Assembly (NCBI RefSeq): GCF_003334305.1
Contig: NZ_QOWS01000001.1
Reading direction: 5' to 3' (one strand)
Length of the DNA stretch: 64,000 nt
Origin: Escherichia coli
GTDB lineage: Bacteria > Pseudomonadota > Gammaproteobacteria > Enterobacterales > Enterobacteriaceae
In this document: one piece after another, positions 1 through 10,600 of the stretch
Numbering within the stretch: the first letter of the stretch is position 1
Layout of the letters: each line of letters opens with the position of its first letter
Notes under the pieces: model-generated
What the model saw: the letters and a program-made list of their open reading frames with translations, nothing else
What the model was told of the DNA's origin: nothing
Database searches by the model: none
Position numbers and translations under genes: made by a program

Positions 1-720
1 GCCGGAATAAAAATTCCACACATCGACCAGTCGCAGGAGTCTGATGCGAAATTCCTGACCCGTCTTGCAGAACGCAACGGCGGTGAGGTGTCGGTAAAAA
101 TGGGAAAACTGTTGTTTCTCAAAGCGGGGCAGGGAGTGACGGCCAGCGGTAAAAAAATCCCGCAGGTCACCATAACCCGCAGCGACGGCGACCGCCATCA
201 TTTTGCGATTGCTGACCGTGGAGCCTACACCGGTGTAACGGCAAAATGGCTACACACTAAAGACCCGAAGCCGCAAAAGCAGAAGGTAAAACTGAAACGC
301 AAAAAGAAAGAGAAACACCTGCGCGCACTGGAGCACCCGAAAGCGAAACCGGTCAGGCAGAAGAAAGCGCCTAAAGTACCGGAAGCGCGTGAAGGTGAAT
401 ACATGGCCGGTGAGGCTGACAACGTTTTCGCCCTGACCACGGTATATGCCACGAAAGCGCAGGCCATGCGCGCCGCTCAGGCGAAGTGGGATAAACTGCA
501 ACGGGGCGTTGCGGAGTTCTCTATCAGCCTGGCTACCGGTCGGGCAGATATTTACACGGAAACACCGGTCAAAGTGTCTGGCTTTAAGCGCGTCATAGAC
601 GAGCAGGACTGGACAATCACTAAGGTGACACATTTTCTGAATAATAGCGGCTTCACGACGTCCTTAGAGCTTGAGGTCAGGCTTTCTGATGTGGAGTACG
701 AAACAGAAGATGATGAGTGA
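1..720 (+). CDS. yegZ: Phage P2-like tail protein D (gpD) C-terminal fragment; 5' end runs off the window (cryptic prophage remnant)
   Basis: Reading frame is open from base 1 through stop at 720; translation resembles the C-terminus of P2 gpD; immediately followed by ogr as in the P2 late region. Confidence 0.75.
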   Translation, partial: AGIKIPHIDQSQESDAKFLTRLAERNGGEVSVKMGKLLFLKAGQGVTASGKKIPQVTITRSDGDRHHFAIADRGAYTGVTAKWLHTKDPKPQKQKVKLKRKKKEKHLRALEHPKAKPVRQKKAPKVPEAREGEYMAGEADNVFALTTVYATKAQAMRAAQAKWDKLQRGVAEFSISLATGRADIYTETPVKVSGFKRVIDEQDWTITKVTHFLNNSGFTTSLELEVRLSDVEYETEDDE

Positions 721-801
721 TGTTTTTGTTTTATCTGTTTGTTTTGTAAGGATAAATTAACTAAAATGGCACCATCAACAAAACCGGAAGAGGTGCTCGC
801 G

Positions 802-1020
802 ATGTTTCATTGTCCTTTATGCCAGCATGCCGCACATGCGCGTACAAGTCGCTATATCACTGACACGACAAAAGAGCGTTATCATCAGTGCCAGAACGTG
901 AATTGCAGCGCCACGTTCATCACTTATGAGTCGGTACAGCGATACATCGTGAAGCCGGGAGAAGTCCACGCCGTAAGGCCGCACCCGTTGCCATCAGGGC
1001 AGCAAATTATGTGGATGTAA
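802..1020 (+). CDS. ogrK: P2 Ogr-type zinc-finger late transcription activator (cryptic prophage)
   Basis: ATG at 802 gives 72 aa starting MFHCPLCQHAAHA with CxxC...CxxC zinc-finger spacing; the ORF-track upstream extension (739) is probably not translated. Confidence 0.85.
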   Translation: MFHCPLCQHAAHARTSRYITDTTKERYHQCQNVNCSATFITYESVQRYIVKPGEVHAVRPHPLPSGQQIMWM

Positions 1021-1030
1021 TTACAAACAG

Positions 1031-1058
1031 AAAGCCCCTCAGTCGAGGGGCTTTTTTG
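1031..1058 (+). terminator. Rho-independent terminator downstream of ogrK
   Basis: GC hairpin gcccctc-agtc-gaggggc followed by a T6 run. Confidence 0.6.
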
Positions 1059-1121
1059 TCGATGTGGTCAATGTGTGGACGTGACCAGAAATAAATCCTT
1101 TTATTTCAATTTATTGTACGT

Positions 1122-1208
1122 AAAAAATAAGCCCGTGTAAGGGAGATTACACAGGCTAAGGAGGTGGTTCCTGGTACAGCTAGCATTTTATGGGTTATGT
1201 TTTTCAGC
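1122..1208 (-). ncRNA. cyaR: CyaR (RyeE) Hfq-dependent sRNA
   Basis: Reverse complement reads GCTGAAAAACATAACCCATAAAATGCTAGCTGTACCAGGAACCACCTCCTTAGCC...CACGGGCTTATTTTTT, matching the CyaR sequence including its terminator hairpin and U-tail. Confidence 0.8.
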
Positions 1209-1292
1209 GAAACGGATGATAACCTTAATAAATGCAGCTGTATGTGATCGGTTTCTAAGAATTTTCCATCCGGGAAAAATAATCGAAATTAA

Positions 1293-2654
1293 TCACTTAC
1301 CGTGGGGATTACGCGTGGTTTCCCCGGAGAAATTACGCATCAGCAGCGCGTAATTGAGCTCAAGATCCTGCGGGACCGGGAGCCACACAGTATAACCATC
1401 GCCTGGTGCTATCGGCATAGCTTCGCCTTTGGCGTTTTCCATGTGCTCAAGGGTAAAATTAATGTTGCCTTGCGGCGTCATCAGCTCAAGGCTGTCGCCA
1501 ACGGAGAATTTATTTTTCACCGCTACCGCCGCGAGGTCCCCCTTGCGCTCACCGGTAAACTCACCAACAAACTGCTGGCGGTCAGAAACTGAATAACCGT
1601 ATTCGTAGTTCTGATAATCGTCGTGAGTATGACGACGCAGGAAACCTTCGGTATAGCCACGATGCGCTAGACCTTCCAGAGTTTCCAGCAGGCTGGTATC
1701 GAACGGTTTTCCCGCAGCGGCGTCATCGATAGCTTTGCGGTAAACCTGTGCGGTGCGTGCACAATAGTAGAAAGATTTGGTACGACCTTCGATTTTCAGC
1801 GAATGCACGCCCATTTTGGTCAGGCGTTCTACATGGGCGATGGCGCGCAGATCTTTCGAGTTCATGATGTAAGTGCCGTGCTCATCTTCAAACGCGGTCA
1901 TATACTCGCCCGGACGCTGGGCCTCTTCGATCATAAACACTTTGTCGGTTGGTGCGCCGATACCCAGCGTCGGCTCAACATTTTGCACCGGAATCGGCTC
2001 GTACTTGTGTACGATGTTGCCAACATCATCTTCTTTCCCTTCCTGGACGTTGTACTCCCAGCGGCAGGCGTTGGTGCAGGTGCCCTGGTTCGGGTCGCGC
2101 TTGTTGATATAGCCAGAGAGCAGGCAGCGACCGGAGTAGGCCATGCACAGCGCGCCGTGAACGAAGATCTCGATCTCCATATCCGGCACCTGATTGCGGA
2201 TCTCTTCAATCTCTTCCAGCGACAGCTCGCGAGAGAGGATCACGCGGGTCAGGCCCATTTGCTGCCAGAATTTCACCGTCGCCCAGTTCACGGCGTTAGC
2301 CTGCACCGAAAGGTGGATCGGCATTTCAGGGAAGTGCTCACGCACCAGCATAATCAGCCCTGGATCGGACATAATCAGCGCATCCGGCCCCATTTCCACC
2401 ACCGGTTTCAGGTCACGGATAAAGGTTTTCAGCTTGGCGTTGTGCGGTGCAATGTTGACCACGACATAAAACTTTTTCCCCAGCGCGTGGGCTTCATTGA
2501 TGCCGAGCTGAAGATTTTCGTGGTTGAATTCGTTGTTGCGCACACGCAGGGAATAACGCGGCTGGCCCGCATAAACAGCATCTGCGCCATAAGCGAAAGC
2601 GTAACGCATATTTTTCAGCGTTCCCGCCGGGGAAAGGAGTTCCGGTTTAAACAT
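1293..2654 (-). CDS. yegQ: U32 family peptidase-like protein (YegQ; reported as tRNA hydroxylation factor TrhP)
   Basis: 453 aa ORF; translation matches YegQ family; conserved cysteine-rich C-terminal region. Confidence 0.85.
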   Translation of the reverse strand: MFKPELLSPAGTLKNMRYAFAYGADAVYAGQPRYSLRVRNNEFNHENLQLGINEAHALGKKFYVVVNIAPHNAKLKTFIRDLKPVVEMGPDALIMSDPGLIMLVREHFPEMPIHLSVQANAVNWATVKFWQQMGLTRVILSRELSLEEIEEIRNQVPDMEIEIFVHGALCMAYSGRCLLSGYINKRDPNQGTCTNACRWEYNVQEGKEDDVGNIVHKYEPIPVQNVEPTLGIGAPTDKVFMIEEAQRPGEYMTAFEDEHGTYIMNSKDLRAIAHVERLTKMGVHSLKIEGRTKSFYYCARTAQVYRKAIDDAAAGKPFDTSLLETLEGLAHRGYTEGFLRRHTHDDYQNYEYGYSVSDRQQFVGEFTGERKGDLAAVAVKNKFSVGDSLELMTPQGNINFTLEHMENAKGEAMPIAPGDGYTVWLPVPQDLELNYALLMRNFSGETTRNPHGK

Positions 2655-2756
2655 AATTCTCTCGTTCTGATGACAGGTCAGATCCGCTTCACCTGATGAA
2701 GCGGTTAGGGGAGTGCCCCCACTTTAAGGGCGGGCATTGTAGCGCAATCGGCGGGT

Positions 2757-3053
2757 TTAGCTCCAGTGTAAATGTCTGGTGGCGTCCTGGTTTTGGTTAA
2801 GGATACGAATGACGATAATTTCCCCTGGTGATTGCAGGAAATAAATGACGTGGCGTTCAAAAGGAAGAACAAAAATACCTTCGCCTAATTCAGGTCTGGG
2901 CGTACCTATATTATTGTTACTCAGAATCTGGAGAACGTCTGAAAGATGTTCCACATATCTGTCGGCTTGTGGTTCGCCGAAATGGTGATAGCTGTAATAC
3001 CAGATGCCTTCTAAATCCTCATTGGCTTTTGGCATGAGTTTAATAATACGCAC
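2757..3053 (-). CDS. ParE-like toxin (RelE/ParE superfamily) of a type II toxin-antitoxin pair
   Basis: 98 aa from a GTG start preceded by AGGA 6 nt upstream; ParE-like sequence pattern (EDLEGIW...FGE.QA..Y...L...P..G...FERHVIYF...IIVIRILNQNQD); lies 1 nt after the antitoxin stop. Confidence 0.7.
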   Translation of the reverse strand: MRIIKLMPKANEDLEGIWYYSYHHFGEPQADRYVEHLSDVLQILSNNNIGTPRPELGEGIFVLPFERHVIYFLQSPGEIIVIRILNQNQDATRHLHWS

Positions 3054-3054
3054 A

Positions 3055-3306
3055 TTATTTCCTTATCCCTGCTTTCACCTTCCGTAAGAACGCGTCCTTT
3101 TCCCACGGCTGAGCTTCACCACTACTCAACCCTTCTGCGAGCATGTCACGTAACGCTTGCAGGCGAGACTCTGCTTGCTTTTCTCGAAGTAATCGCAGTG
3201 ACTCACGGATCACTTCGCTTTGGGTGCGATAGTCGCCGGATTCAATTAAGGACTCGATAAATTCACGCAACTCATCGCCGAGATCAACCGTCATCGTTCT
3301 GGCCAT
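3055..3306 (-). CDS. ParD-like ribbon-helix-helix antitoxin
   Basis: 83 aa from ATG at 3306 (MARTMTVDLGDELREF...), typical ParD/COG3609 N-terminus; an alternative in-frame ATG at 3351 would add 15 aa. Confidence 0.7.
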   Translation of the reverse strand: MARTMTVDLGDELREFIESLIESGDYRTQSEVIRESLRLLREKQAESRLQALRDMLAEGLSSGEAQPWEKDAFLRKVKAGIRK

Positions 3307-3395
3307 TTTACGCCCGCCTGTAAGTAAAAATCTTACATCAGTGTATGTCATAAACCGGATAGCGTCACGAAAGTATTAGAAGATATTTTGGCACA

Positions 3396-3407
3396 TGAAC
3401 ATGTTCA
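3396..3407. promoter_or_regulatory. Perfect 12-bp palindrome TGAACATGTTCA upstream of parD; candidate operator for autoregulation
   Basis: Palindrome seen directly in sequence, about 90 bp upstream of the preferred parD start. Confidence 0.35.
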
Positions 3408-3559
3408 GGAGGATAAGTATGGGATGGTAAACAAAGAAAGCACAACGAGTGCTCGTCAGTGCCCACTATTTTAATGGCGGCGGTTACTCTTAATTATTAA
3501 TAACTAAGCGTTATTTGGATATAAAGCCGGACGCCAACAACCCACGCCCGGCATCGTAA

Positions 3560-3892
3560 TTACGTATTGTCTTTCACCGTCTGGCTTGTGCCATTGGCTT
3601 TAACGGAGGCAATTCCGGTTTCACGAGATTGCGCGGTGGCGTACATCTGGCTGGAGCCGATAATTTGATGATTAGCGGCTTTCAGATTGAAATAGAATTT
3701 GCCGTTACTTGCCGTTTTTTTCTCATAGCGTTCTTCTTGCGGGCTGTTGCTACGCACCGACGCGATGCCCTTTTCCGCAGAGGCTTTTGAGGTATACAGC
3801 TCGCTGGTGAGGATAGTCTCACCATTGCCCGCTTTTAGCACAAACCGGAACTGATTATCACTGCTCTTACTGAGTTCAAACCAACCAGCCAT
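3560..3892 (-). CDS. yegP: YegP, tandem DUF1508 (UPF0339) protein
   Basis: 110 aa from ATG at 3892 (MAGWFELSK...); two repeated halves (xGxxxxxSExYxSKxSAxxGIASVxxN). Confidence 0.8.
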   Translation of the reverse strand: MAGWFELSKSSDNQFRFVLKAGNGETILTSELYTSKASAEKGIASVRSNSPQEERYEKKTASNGKFYFNLKAANHQIIGSSQMYATAQSRETGIASVKANGTSQTVKDNT

Positions 3893-4082
3893 AATGACTC
3901 CTTGATTGAAATTGTGTATCGAAAACAGCATCTAAAGGTGCTGTTTACCGATTAAAGTATGAGCGATTTTCTGATGCCTGCCAGGGCGGAGAGATAATGT
4001 CAGTTTGCTGACCATGCGTGGGATAATGTTGCCGGATCGGGTCTGAACGCCATCTCCGGCTAACAAAATAATGTCGCTAAAA

Positions 4083-4805
4083 CTAAACGATGCGGCAGGC
4101 GTCGGCTTCCCAGCGGTAACCGACGCCGTAAACGGCGCGGATAAATGACTGTTCGGCGTCGAGAGATTCCAGCTTGCGGCGCAGGTTTTTAATGTGGCTG
4201 TCAATGGTGCGGTCGGTTACTACGCGGTAGTCGTCATAAAGATGATTGAGCAATTGCTCTCGGGAGAACACTTTTCCTGGTTCATGAGAGAGCGTTTTCA
4301 GCAGACGAAATTCCGCAGGCGTCAGGTCAAGCATTTTACCGCGCCATGAAGCCTGAAAACGACCTTCGTCGATAATCAACGGGCTTTCAGCATCCTGTTG
4401 CTGCAACTCGCGCTGCGGTTTGCAACGGCGCAAAATGGTTTTGACGCGCGCTACCACTTCCCGTGGGCTGTACGGCTTACAGATATAATCATCTGCGCCA
4501 ATCTCCAGCCCCAGCAGGCGATCGATCTCTTCGATTTTTGCCGTCACCATCACGATCGGAATGTCAGAAAAACGACGAATTTCCCGGCACAGCGTCAAGC
4601 CATCGGTGCCAGGGAGCATCAGATCCAACAGGATCAGATCCGGTGGTGTCTGGCGCACATACGGCAGTACCTGATCGCCGTGGCTGATAAGCGTCGGCGC
4701 ATAGCTCGCAGCACGCAGATAATCAATGAGCAACTGCCCCAGCTTCGGTTCATCTTCCACGATCAAAATACGCGGTGTGTTTTCGTCGATTGGTAACTCG
4801 GTCAT
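4083..4805 (-). CDS. baeR: Response regulator BaeR (OmpR family)
   Basis: 240 aa; receiver domain with conserved Asp and winged-helix C-terminus; start overlaps baeS stop (ATGA). Confidence 0.95.
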
Positions 4806-6205
4806 ACTTCTCTCTGTAAATCCCGTTCCAGCGGTAACTCTACTGTAATGCTTACCCCGCCAAAAGGCGAATGGGCAGCAATAATGCGACCATTATGTGC
4901 TTCAACAATGTTCAGGCAAATCGCCAGCCCCAGCCCGGAACCGCCGCTGGCACGGTTGCGGGAACCTTCGGTGCGATAAAAACGTTCAAACAATTTTTGT
5001 AGCTGATCGTCACTGACACCTGGCGCACTGTCGGCAAAGGTCAGGCGCACCGTTTTGTCGCGCTGCCCGGCAGAGATTTGCAGGCTGCCGCCGCTGTCAG
5101 TGTAGCGCAGGCTGTTTTCCAGTAAGTTATTGAATAACTGCATTAAACGGTCGCGATCGCCAAATACGGTAATACTGTCTGGCAGGGAAAATTGCAGTTT
5201 CAGGCCACGACTGGCGAATCGTTCGCGAAATGCGCCGCCCGCCACTTCCAGCAGTGGGATCAAATCTACCGGTGCTTTTTGATAGGCGAGAGCGCCTTCA
5301 TCAGACATCGACAACTGATGGAGATCGTCAACCAGTTTGGTCAGTGTACCGACCTCCGCCTGTAAAGACGCCACCGTCTCCGGCGTGAATTTACGCACGC
5401 CATCCTGAATGGCTTCCAGTTCACCGCGCAGCACCGCTAATGGCGTACGCAGTTCGTGAGAAATATCGGCCATAAAATCGCGCCGCATTTGCTGGTTTTT
5501 CTCCAGTGTGTTGGCAAGCTGGTTGAAGTCTTGCGCCAGTTTGCCCAGTTCATCTTCACTGGTGGGCGTTACGCGGGTAGTGAAATCGCCCGCCGCCAGT
5601 TTGTGCGTGCCATCGACAAGTCGTTTTACCGGTGCCAGTAAACCGCGCGCCAGCAGAAAGGTGGCGAGCGCCGCGAGTAACGTTGCCAGAGCGACAATCA
5701 ACCAGCTGGTTTGCCGCTGTTGTTTATCGAAATTGATATCAGTATTGCGCGTTAACCGCTCAACGGGGGAGGCGATCACCGCGCCAACTTCCGCACCGTT
5801 GACCAGAATGGGTCGCCGTGTACCGTCAGGTGGAATCGGCGCTCGCGGACCAACCAGCACTTTGTTGTTTTGATCAACCACCCAGAACTGGGTACGCCAG
5901 CCGTGCGGTGGCATACCCGGGCCGGGTTTATCTTCCGAATTATCGTGTTCAAATGAACGCAGGATCTGAAAGACAAAGCGATCATTGTTGCGCAGGAAGC
6001 GCCAGTTGCCATGCTGCGCATACTGCTCGCCAAGCGCATCACTTAACAGTTGTAATCGCTGTTCATTACCATGCTTGATGTAATCAATAAAGCCACGCTC
6101 AAAACTGATACGCACCGCCCAGTGCATACTGATCAGCAAGACAATGCAGGTGGCGAAAATCGCCAGAAACAGTTTGCCGGTAATACCAGGTCGCCAGAAC
6201 TTCAT
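4802..6205 (-). CDS. baeS: Sensor histidine kinase BaeS
   Basis: 467 aa; two TM segments, HAMP, HisKA (H-box SHELRTPL) and HATPase domains. Confidence 0.95.
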
Positions 6206-7617
6206 TGCGCGCTCCTTTTTCGCCGCGAAATAGCTACATTTTGATGCGTATCGTTCGGCACTCTGGCAAAGATGAACGCCGGAAGGGCGATGATCAACGC
6301 CATGCTAAGCCAGGTGTACATAAAGACGGTTTGTGTGGTGCCGCTGTCGACGCTGACATGCTGTGAACCAAAAAGTCCCAGCAACAGCCCGGCGATAGTG
6401 ACGCCGATACTCATCGACAATTGCATAATCATCGACAGCAGGCTGTTGCCGCTGCTCGCCAGATTGTCCGGGAGATCTTTCAGCGTCAGGGTGTTCATGG
6501 AGGAGAAACGCGTCGAGTTGACCATCCCTTGTAAAAACAGGACGAACGGCAAAACGTAGTACCAGCCCAGCAGGGCGGTAGTCATAAACAACAGGGTGAC
6601 CAGCGACAGACCCAGCGTGGTCGCTACCAGTACCCGACGATAACCAAAGCGATTCACCACCTGTACCACAATTCGCTTCATTCCCATGCTGCCAAGCACC
6701 ATCGGGATCATCATTAGTCCGGCATGAAACGGCGAGAAACCGAGGCCAATTTGCAGGAAAACCGGTGTCATAAAGGGCAACATGCCACTGCCAATACGTC
6801 CGGCAAAGCTCCCCGCCAGGCCCAGCGAAAAGGTACGAGTACGGAACAGTTTCAGACTGAACAGGGCACGGTTGTTATTTCTGGCGTGCAGCAGATAAAG
6901 CACCAGTGCCACCACGCCAACTGCGACCAGGCCTGCAATCGTCAGCGGCGATAAACCTGTACCTTTACTGCCGTCCAGCGCCAGGGTTAATACCGCCATG
7001 CCAACCGCCAGCAATAAAAATCCGGAGAGATCAAAGCGCCGCGTCTGCATGGTGTAGTTCGGCATTAACAGCAATGTGGCGATCGCACCGATAATCCCCA
7101 CCGGAATGTTGATCAAAAAGATCCAGTGCCACGACGCGTACTCCACCAGCAGACCGCCGAGCGCCGGACCGAGCAGCGGACCGACCTGACCGGGTAACGT
7201 GACAAAGGTCATCGCCGCCATATATTGCTCGCGCGGTACGATTTTCATCACCGTCAATCTGCCGACCGGCACCATCATCGCGCCGCCAACGCCCTGTAAC
7301 GCGCGTGCCAGCAACAGTTCGTTCAGCGTCCCGGAAAGCGCGCAAAACAGTGAACCGAGAGTAAACAGCACGATGGCGGTAAAGAAAATATTGCGCACGC
7401 CGACTTTGTCCGCCAGCCAGCCGCTGGCGGGCAGCATCACCGCCACGGTCAGCACATAAGAGACAATGACCATGTGCATATGCAACGGACTTTCCCCGAG
7501 GCTTTGCGCCATTGAGGGAAGGGCGGTGTTTACGATGGTGGTGTCCAGCGACTGCATAAAGAAGCCGAAAGCCACAATCCACAATTGCCAACGGGTGCTG
7601 TCGGGAAGATCTGTCAT
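6202..7617 (-). CDS. mdtD: MFS transporter MdtD
   Basis: 471 aa polytopic membrane protein; MFS-like repeats; position between mdtC and baeS. Confidence 0.9.
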
Positions 7618-10600
7618 TTACTCGGTTACCGTTTGTTTAGGTTTACGCGAAAAACGCAGCCGCAGACGGTCGAAAAAGAGATACACCACCGGCGTGGTAT
7701 ACAGCGTAAGGAGCTGGCTCATTACCAGTCCGCCGACAATGGTGATCCCCAGGGGTTGCCGCAGCTCCGAGCCGTCGCCGCCCGACAATACCAGCGGCAG
7801 CGCACCAAACAGCGCCGCCAGGGTGGTCATCATAATCGGGCGAAAACGCAGCAGACAGGCCTGGAAAATAGCTTCCTGCGGCGTCAGGTTACCGTGCCGT
7901 TGGGCTTCAAGCGCAAAATCGACCATCATAATGGCGTTTTTCTTCACGATGCCGATTAATAGCATGATCCCTATCAGGGCGATTAGGCTGAACGGGGCAT
8001 TGAACAGCTCCAGCGCCAACAGCGCTCCAACGCCCGCCGAGGGCAGGGTGGAGAGAATCGTCAGCGGATGTACGTAACTCTCGTAAAGGATACCCAGCAC
8101 GATATACACCGTGGCGATGGCGGCGATAATCAGGATCACCTGCGAGTTCATCGTCTCCTGGAACACCTGCGCCGTGCCGGCAAAACTGCCGCGCACCGTC
8201 GAAGGCACACCAAGCTGGGTCATTGCGCGATCGATCGCCGCACTGGCGTCCGAGAGCGATTTTCCGGTCGGCAGGTTAAACGAAATGGTCGAGGCCGCCG
8301 ATAATCCCTGATGATTCACCGATAGTGGGGCATTCGCCGGTTGCCATTTAGCGAAATACGACAGCGGGATCGCTTTGCCTTCGTTATTGATAACGAACAT
8401 TTTTTCCAGCGCACTGATGTCCTGGGTATAGCGCGGATCCACTTCCATCACCACTTTATACTGGTTCATCGGCTGGTAAATGGTCGAGATTTGCCGCTGA
8501 CCGAAGGCGTTATTTAACAGACTGTTGGCGGCTTGTACGTCGATTCCCAGCCGTGCCATGGTGTCACGGTCGTAAACCAGATTCATCTCCGCGCCGTTAT
8601 CCTGCTGATCGGAGTTCACGTCCGCCAGTTCCGGCAACGTCGCCAGTTTTTTGCGGATTTTCGGCTCCCATTCGCGCAGTGCCGCCAGGTCGTCGGATAA
8701 CAACGTGTACTGGTAGCTGGCGTTCGACTGACGCCCACCAACGCGAATATCCTGTACCGCCATCAGGAACAGATTCGCCCCCGGTTCTTTCGCCAGTTTT
8801 ACGCGCAGACGGTCGATAATTTGCTGCGCCGTTTCGCTGCGTTCGTCGCGTGGCTTGAGGGTGATAAACATCATCCCGCTGTTCACTCGCGAACCGCCTG
8901 TAAAGCCGGTGACATTATCCACTGCCGGATCGTCACGGATAATTTTCATGAAATCCTGCAACTTACCGCGCATCGCCTGAAACGAAATACTCTGATCCGC
9001 CTGAATCCCGCCCATCAACACGCCAGTGTCCTGCTCCGGGAAGAAGGTTTTCGGGATCGAGATATACAGCCAGATATTCAGCGCAATGGTGCCAAGCAGC
9101 ACCACGCCCACCAGACGGGTATGATTGAGCACCCATTTCAGTGACTTGCCGTAGCCTTGTTGCAGGGCTACCAACATGCGACCAAAACCACGCAGTCGCT
9201 TTTGCTCGCGCGGCTTGCTGGCTTTCAGCATCCAGCCACACATCATTGGCGTTAATGTCAGAGAAACCAGCAACGAAATACCAATGGCGACAGAAAGCGT
9301 CACGGCAAACTCGCGTAACAGTCGGCCCGGCAATCCGCCCATCAACAGCAGCGGCAGGAACACCGCCACCAGTGACAGACTCATCGACAGCACCGTAAAA
9401 CCGACTTCGCGAGTACCTTGCAGTGCGGCTTGCAACGGTTTCATTCCCGCTTCCAGATGACGGGCAATGTTTTCCAGCACCACGATGGCGTCATCCACCA
9501 CGAAACCAGTAGCGATGGTGAGCGCCATTAACGAAAGGTTATTGAGACTGAATCCGCACAGGTACATCGCCGCAAACGTACCAATCAGCGAAACCGGCAC
9601 CGAAACGGCGGGAATAATAGTGGCGCGACCCGAGCGCAGGAATAAAAATACCACCAGAATCACCAGCGCCACCGAGATAATCAGCGTTTGCTCGACTTCT
9701 TCCAGCGAGGCGCGAATGGTGGGGGAGCGATCCTGGGCAATTTGCAGATCAATCGCCGCCGGAATGGTTTCCTGCAACTCCGGTAATTTTGCCCGGATGC
9801 TGTCAACCGTCTGGATAATATTGGCTTCCGGCAGCTTGCGGATCATCAGCAAAATAGCCGGTTTGGCATTGGTCATCCCGGCGTTACGTACATCCTGTAC
9901 AGAGTCGGTCACTGTCGCCACATCGCCCAGACGAACCGCGCCGCCGTTGTTGTAATGAATAATCAGCGGCTGATATTCGGCGGCGGTTTTTAGCTCATCA
10001 TTGGTCTGGATCTGCCAGCGGTGAGTGCCATCTTCCAGCGCCCCCTGCGGTTTACGCACGTTGGCATTGCTGATGGCAGTGCGTACGTCGTCCAGCGAGA
10101 CGCCCTGATTAAACAGCGCCTGCGGATTCAGCCCGACGCGTACGGCGGGCAGTGAGCTGCCGCCGACATCGACATCACCAACACCGTCGATTTGCGAAAT
10201 CGTCGGAGCCAGCTGCGTCGAGGCAAAATCGTACAGTTCACCCTGCGAATAAGTATCGGATGTCAGCGTGAGGATCATAATTGGCGCATCCGACGGGTTA
10301 GCTTTGCGATAGGTCGGACGGCTGGGCATCCCGCTGGGCAGCAAACTTTGTGCAGCGTTGATCGCCGCCTGCACATCGCGCGCCGCGCCGTTGATATCCC
10401 GGTCAAAATCAAACTGCAAAATAATACGCGTGCTGCCGAGCGAACTGCTGGAGGTCATTTCACTGACTCCGGCAATGCGCCCAAGTGAGCGCTCCAGCGG
10501 CGTGGCAACGGAAGACGCCATTGTTTCTGGTGACGCACCGGGCAGCGAGGCGCTGACCATAATCACCGGAAAATCGACCTGCGGCAGCGGGGCGACCGGC

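Follow-up and report, generated by a model that had tools for sequence, protein, structure and literature searches.

The closest relatives of solved structure to the gene pair considered here are PrpT and PrpA of the Pseudoalteromonas rubra plasmid pMBL6842 (PDB 7YCS-7YCW; PMC9731233). PrpT is toxic in Escherichia coli, with filamentation of the cells, and PrpA both neutralises PrpT and represses its own promoter, where it protects 30 bp from DNase I, covering the -35 and part of the -10 (PMC7848731). In another ParE toxin, VcParE2 of Vibrio cholerae, a mutational study found toxicity to be lowered by the W25F change (bioRxiv 10.1101/2025.07.24.666505).

The E. coli pair lies in a 64-kb stretch of DNA (hereafter the window, that is, all 64,000 nucleotides analysed), and its features are collected in Table 1. 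Taken as a whole, and with considerable confidence, the locus is best explained as a two-gene type II toxin-antitoxin (TA) operon, parD-parE, autorepressed via the inverted repeat at 3319-3337, whose ParE is probably a gyrase poison.

Table 1. Features of the parDE locus in window coordinates
Feature	Position	Strand	Basis
yegQ/trhP	1293-2654	-	identity to annotated RefSeq records
variable segment, 780 bp (parDE and upstream region)	2746-3525		alignment to K-12
parE-like toxin gene, 98 aa, GTG start	2757-3053	-	ORF list; PF05016
parD antitoxin gene, 83 aa (MARTMTVD...)	3055-3306	-	RHH N-terminus, toxin-binding C-terminus; PF03693
Shine-Dalgarno AAGGA of parE	3060-3064	-	within parD 3' end, 6 nt before GTG; read from sequence
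inverted repeat TGTAAG-N7-CTTACA, candidate ParD operator	3319-3337		conserved upstream of parD
candidate sigma-70 promoter of parDE	3340-3368	-	by eye: -35 GTGACG (3368-3363), 17-nt spacer, -10 TACACT (3345-3340)
perfect 12-bp palindrome TGAACATGTTCA	3396-3407		read from sequence
yegP	3560-3931	-	identity to annotated RefSeq records

The gene pair and its residence between yegQ and yegP

The spacer between yegQ/trhP and yegP is 905 bp long and holds two minus-strand ORFs. A first-pass annotation of the window had described them as two small genes 1 nt apart, a ParD (ribbon-helix-helix, RHH) and ParE pair of type II flanked by yegQ and yegP, and in these respects it was right: the parD stop TAA (3057-3055) is followed by a single base (3054) and then by the parE GTG (3053-3051), the flanking genes are recognised by identity to annotated RefSeq records, and the assignment to the ParD/ParE class agrees with Pfam, NCBIfam and PDB relatives. 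The HMM search that it had proposed returned full-length matches for both proteins, ParE_toxin PF05016 for the toxin (2e-13; query 4-90, model 1-88 of 89) and ParD_antitoxin PF03693 for the antitoxin (4.7e-19, from residue 1). ParD also matches RHH_1 (0.003) and NCBIfam TIGR02606 (88.4 bits, with a curated cutoff of 46.2), and NCBIfam returned no family for ParE. The order is antitoxin-first and bicistronic, parD abutting parE, and in 58 of 69 related loci parD is followed immediately by a parE homologue. Selection on both genes is purifying, with pN/pS of 0.03-0.07 for parD and 0.12-0.15 for parE when compared with the E. whittamii and MSHS133 alleles.

Judged from its sequence, this is an intact, ordinary, chromosomal ParD/ParE pair of the PrpT/PrpA-like (ParE/PF03693) kind. 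It is also a pair already known: RefSeq annotates the two genes as a TA system of type II, and both proteins occur on at least 1000 public contigs (RefSeq, UniRef), with labels such as 'type II toxin-antitoxin system RelE/ParE family toxin' and 'antitoxin ParD1/3/4'. As a discovery the pair therefore carries little weight, being already named and belonging to a family whose structure and function have been characterised. No study of the pair was retrieved from the literature, whether by protein accession, by the names yegP/yegQ combined with ParD/ParE or through general work on TA systems, and the PADLOC defence-system models matched neither ParD nor ParE (E<=0.01).

One point of annotation does need correction. 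The upstream ORF read from ATG 3306 begins MARTMTVDLGDELREF..., and the RefSeq model of ParD, with 98 aa, starts at 3351. The real ParD is, on comparative grounds, the 83-aa protein, and the 98-aa form is over-extended, because a 1-nt insertion between 3351 and 3306 in the MSHS133 allele breaks the extension and leaves the 83-aa frame intact (there with a better Shine-Dalgarno), because ATG 3351 sits within the spacer of the likely parDE promoter, and because orthologues at more than 60 loci start MARTMTVD, an agreement partly built in, given that the related loci were gathered with six ParD peptide patterns, MARTMTVD among them, so that a shared N-terminus was partly enriched. The start at MARTMTV chosen in the first-pass annotation is thus upheld by the MSHS133 frame and by the orthologue starts. 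In the record of MSHS133 (L005, 2901-3198), and in similar RefSeq records, parD is marked 'frameshifted' though the 83-aa ORF is intact, since RefSeq places the start of the gene 45 nt too far upstream; the over-long model produces spurious pseudogene calls in some strains. The parD Shine-Dalgarno of the window, GGCGGG, is weak.

The pair had been described as absent from K-12 at this position and, accordingly, as a likely accessory insertion. The absence is real: the K-12 spacer measures 146 bp against 905 bp, and alignment places about 22 unrelated bases there where the window has 2746-3525. The comparison across E. coli genomes suggested at the time shows that the pair is not universal, the 780-bp segment being carried by 1846 of 5426 complete genomes (34%), full-length in 1844, always as one chromosomal copy, at an identity of at least 99% in 1518 genomes and of 95-99% in 327. 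Accessory it is, then, but insertion in the sense of a recent gain does not hold, for in E. whittamii, too, the pair sits between yegP and yegQ, in a region that is collinear from baeS through yegQ, and in CFT073 a 19-nt remnant of the parE 3' end survives beside a different island. Identity to the E. whittamii DNA amounts to 95-96% for parD/parE, 82.5% for the upstream spacer of the segment, 85.5% for yegP and 92.8% for yegQ, the divergence of the pair being similar to that of the flanking genes. No convincing direct or inverted terminal repeats marking a mobile element were found at the segment ends, where the best candidate is a 17-nt pair, 82% complementary, at 2777-2793 and 3523-3539. Since E. 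whittamii shares the locus, the pair appears to be old and variably lost, and its history looks like one of long residence followed by repeated loss or replacement, not of recent gain. Read in this way, it would offer a clear case of a TA module held at one chromosomal site since before the split of E. coli and E. whittamii and repeatedly lost or replaced.

The island of CFT073 (L003, 2501-5121) is larger, lies downstream of yegQ and carries genes for PcfJ-domain, DUF1266 and DUF4034 proteins; given that it starts right after the 19-nt parE remnant, the yegQ-yegP spacer looks like a recurrent replacement site. Two PLSDB entries, CP061244.1 (1.41 Mb) and NZ_OL790696.1 (4.80 Mb), contain the segment at 100% identity, and both look like chromosomal sequence filed as plasmids.

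The junctions of the segment touch the neighbouring genes. Upstream of yegQ/trhP, K-12 (L001, 2582-2610) has a promoter-like site, TTTACC-17-TACAAT (9/12); the window keeps TACAAT (2742-2737), and the left junction of the segment (2745/2746) swaps the -35 for the last parE codons. A scan of the window gave no terminator-like site between parE and yegQ. With the -35 replaced and no such site in between, carriers may express trhP differently, possibly through parDE read-through, yet a rewiring of yegQ/trhP expression by the segment is distinctly unlikely. At the right junction (3525/3526), the yegP terminator hairpin (GCCGGGCG...CGTCCGGC; 3526-3552) is common to the window and K-12, and the T-tract after it reads TTTATAT, contributed by the segment, in the former and GCTTTACC in the latter. 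Farther off, the CyaR (RyeE) sRNA (1125-1210, minus strand; 100.7 bits) lies between ogrK and yegQ as in K-12, and is the only Rfam match over window positions 1-8000, outside the parDE locus. A P2-like prophage remnant occupies 88-1020 on the plus strand, with a gpD-like ORF (88-720, 210 aa), far longer than the 213-bp K-12 fragment, and then an ogr/ogrK-like zinc-finger ORF (739-1020).

Candidate operator and promoter

The inverted repeat TGTAAG-N7-CTTACA stands 12 nt upstream of the parD ATG (3306) and is the sole match in the 64-kb window at up to one mismatch, where 0.09 would be expected. The 69 related loci were drawn from one-genome-per-species contigs, and 64 of them are usable upstream of parD; in 63 of the 64, from many genera, the repeat is present at up to two mismatches within 150 nt upstream of parD, a recurrence to be read with the sampling by MARTMTVD in mind, which partly enriched for shared operator specificity. 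The extended consensus is ATGTAAGA-N5-TCTTACAT. Within Enterobacterales the repeat is found 10-20 nt upstream of the parD ATG; Legionella has a further copy, which overlaps the -35/-10 region. When the loci are aligned on the repeat, information content approaches its maximum over the arms and drops almost to zero in the flanks.

The same repeat is met in the relative whose operator has been footprinted. The prpA promoter of P. rubra reads TT-TGTAAT-GATATGT-CTTATA-AT, one change per arm with respect to the E. coli repeat, and its repeat overlaps the published PrpA motif TTTG(T/A)AAT (PMC7848731, PMC9731233) and falls in the footprinted stretch, as this is located by the paper's wording and not by the footprint sequence. 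Among PDB chains, PrpA is the best match of ParD (7YCS_D, 2e-27), the rest at E<0.01 being other ParD-type antitoxin chains, and the DNA-reading strand RTMTVD is identical in the two proteins. As the prpA promoter has the same repeat, and PrpA and ParD share RTMTVD, 3319-3337 most likely serves as operator for the E. coli pair. What follows is a testable candidate, TGTAAGA-N5-TCTTACA, that would be common to the ParD/PrpA subfamily in Enterobacterales, Legionella and Alteromonadales.

A consensus promoter scan with a threshold of 9/12 yielded no minus-strand promoter for parDE. The candidate of Table 1 agrees with the consensus at 8/12 positions and thus falls below that threshold, so that the proposal rests on comparison with relatives, in which a -10-like box (TATACT, TATAAT, TACACT) occupies the corresponding position and precedes the repeat by 2-4 nt. 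By this comparison GTGACG-17-TACACT is the putative parDE promoter.

A different operator had been put forward in the first-pass annotation, namely the perfect palindrome TGAACATGTTCA. It is present exactly as described, and it falls in the upstream spacer, where chance predicts about 0.05 perfect 12-bp palindromes over the 219 nt preceding parD, a position therefore only mildly unusual; it is also invariant in two E. coli alleles and in E. whittamii, inside a block of about 60 nt that is better conserved between the two species than the remaining upstream spacer. Perfect 12-bp palindromes nevertheless occur in the 64-kb window at chance rate: 18 are present, where composition predicts 15.6 and shuffled sequence gives 15.9 +/- 3.8. 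Conservation of this one is confined to E. coli alleles and E. whittamii; it is found at 0 of 62 non-Escherichia loci, although the ParD of these loci keeps the same DNA-reading residues. Moreover, some 27 nt separate it from the best -35 candidate, which lies downstream, and 89 nt separate it from the ATG; the homology of plasmid cassettes stops at 3346, short of it, and the PrpA motif fits the repeat at 3319-3337, which is the element conserved instead, and not the palindrome. That the palindrome is the ParD operator is thus very unlikely, and the proposal is probably mistaken; given the conserved block around it, it may have a function other than ParD binding.

Adjoining the palindrome on the plus strand is AGGAGG (3408-3413), a strong Shine-Dalgarno, and the two together form the best-conserved stretch of the spacer; the ATG found 6 nt on (3421) encodes Met-Gly-Trp-stop only. 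A 16-codon ORF (3426-3476, plus strand), MVNKESTTSARQCPLF, overlaps the ATG 3421 ORF, and its frame and stop are kept in MSHS133 (MLNKESTMSIHQCPLF) and E. whittamii (MSNKESTMSACLCLLF). A divergent small gene near the palindrome was considered and not called: the phase with respect to the first ATG differs between alleles, for which reason the 16-codon ORF is probably not a gene.

The toxin and the proposed mechanism

The GTG start with a good ribosome-binding site assigned earlier to the toxin stands, AAGGA lying 6 nt upstream and the GTG aligning with the start codon of 40 orthologues, which is ATG in 37 of them. When all PDB chains were searched (phmmer, E<=1), the nearest solved chains were PrpT (7YCS, 2e-12), M. 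tuberculosis ParE1, Caulobacter ParE1, V. cholerae ParE2 and one more of the ParE class; RelE, YoeB, HigB and YafQ chains were absent from the matches, and the sole non-ParE match was unrelated and weak (E=0.34). It is against this outcome that a toxin of another kind, one that cleaves mRNA in a ribosome-dependent manner like RelE and does not poison gyrase, has to be weighed. ParE and RelE do have a common fold and superfamily, and the RefSeq name 'RelE/ParE family' spans both; the nearest PDB relatives, however, are ParE toxins, the partner is a ParD of the PF03693 class, whose members are the antitoxins of ParE toxins (PMC7848731), and the N-terminal alpha-hairpin region of the toxin aligns throughout with ParE toxins, so that an endonuclease of the RelE type is extremely improbable.

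Relatives with a shown gyrase effect align with this ParE over the full length. In the alignment, Trp25 of VcParE2 is Phe25 here, as it is Phe in PrpT, and His88 of VcParE2, well conserved in ParE toxins, is Asn86. Tyr20, Tyr33, His68 and Arg83 are invariant in the clade (full-length orthologues), the first three corresponding to Phe20, Tyr33 and His69 of VcParE2. With Phe25 in place of the key Trp and Asn86 in place of the His, the toxin may be weaker or may contact gyrase differently. Of 41 full-length orthologues, 24 have His at position 86, 11 have Ser and 6 have Asn, and the 17 with Ser or Asn belong to the Enterobacterales clade of intact genes. Decay as the cause of the change from His to Asn86 was rejected, since a change that is clade-wide in intact genes points to a subfamily trait.

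The same residues bear on whether the locus is a domesticated or attenuated remnant, in which ParD would still repress, ParE would be mostly non-toxic and the locus would persist without addiction. For such a remnant speak Asn86 in place of the conserved His, Phe25 in place of a Trp whose W25F change weakened VcParE2, the weakness of both the promoter and the parD Shine-Dalgarno, the loss of the segment in many lineages without apparent harm, and the truncated or frameshifted parE or parD genes at several related loci. Yet the pN/pS of parE is 0.12-0.15 and virtually all carriers have the gene intact, the change from His to Ser/Asn is common to the whole Enterobacterales clade of intact genes, and PrpT, also with Phe at the Trp25 position, is strongly toxic; attenuation, on balance, is unlikely.

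The autorepressed parD-parE operon remains the favoured reading, and would work as follows. The weak sigma-70 promoter GTGACG-17-TACACT (3368-3340) would produce a bicistronic parD-parE mRNA, in which translation of parE from GTG 3053 is probably coupled to the termination of parD one base upstream. ParD (83 aa) is expected to dimerise through its N-terminal ribbon-helix-helix, and the dimer to read TGTAAG-N7-CTTACA, just downstream of the -10 or at the transcription start, which would result in autorepression, and the C-terminal half of ParD would wrap and neutralise ParE. Should ParD be degraded and not replaced, free ParE would, by analogy with characterised relatives, most likely poison DNA gyrase and cause filamentation and growth arrest. 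For growth arrest by ParE and its relief by ParD, the support is indirect and comes from the purifying selection on both genes and from the toxicity that its homologue PrpT displays in E. coli (PMC7848731).

Comparison with characterised systems

The PaaR-PaaA-ParE systems of E. coli O157:H7 prophages likewise have a toxin of the ParE superfamily. They include a third regulator gene, whereas here there is none, no ORF of at least 40 aa being present on the operon strand between parD and yegP (3352-3559); the antitoxin is a DNA-binding RHH ParD and not PaaA, and the pair does not lie in a prophage.

Plasmid-borne ParDE copies (IncF and related; Escherichia, Klebsiella, Enterobacter) are closer, with 69-71% DNA identity across the stretch from parE through parD to the operator region (window ~2763-3346), and represent an allele family different from that of the chromosomal pair. 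As this homology reaches 3346, it covers the repeat and not the 12-bp palindrome. ParDE homologues are carried by 881 plasmid records, most of them conjugative. In the one IncF copy inspected, that of the E. coli IncFIA/FIB/FIC plasmid pRIVM_C019217_2 (L076, ~2301-2950), parD is frameshifted and the repeat is degraded to TGTAAA...CTTACA. This homologue lies near genes for a RepB-family replication initiator and a tyrosine recombinase, and is absent from the plasmid gene table. [quoted passage not shown]

At a greater distance, ParD1/ParE1 of Caulobacter crescentus (3KXE) and of M. tuberculosis (8C24) and ParD2/ParE2 of V. cholerae (7R5A/7B22) align over the full length and have the same architecture of RHH antitoxin and ParE toxin, with E-values of 6e-8 to 7e-7 for ParE and of 3e-12 to 9e-11 for ParD. 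All three toxins have the loop Trp (Trp25 in VcParE2) where this ParE has Phe, and the conserved His88 of VcParE2 is again replaced by Asn.

Closest of all are PrpT/PrpA (7YCS/7YCU; PMC7848731, PMC9731233), with the same gene order, an antitoxin of ~83-86 aa, a toxin of 98 aa, and PF03693 and PF05016 for antitoxin and toxin in both systems. The two differ in location, PrpT/PrpA being on a conjugative plasmid and the E. coli pair chromosomal, so that the ori-iteron binding by which PrpA limits plasmid copy number is without obvious counterpart here. They differ also in the conserved His of PrpT (RVLHQ), which is Asn in this ParE (RILNQ), and in the place of the repeat, which is found between -35 and -10 in P. 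rubra and downstream of the -10, near the likely transcription start, in E. coli. Along the same line of comparison, PrpA and this ParD share 61% identity and the RTMTVD strand, PrpT and ParE match at E=2e-12, and the two promoters display the same inverted-repeat half-site, TGTAAT in P. rubra and TGTAAG in E. coli.
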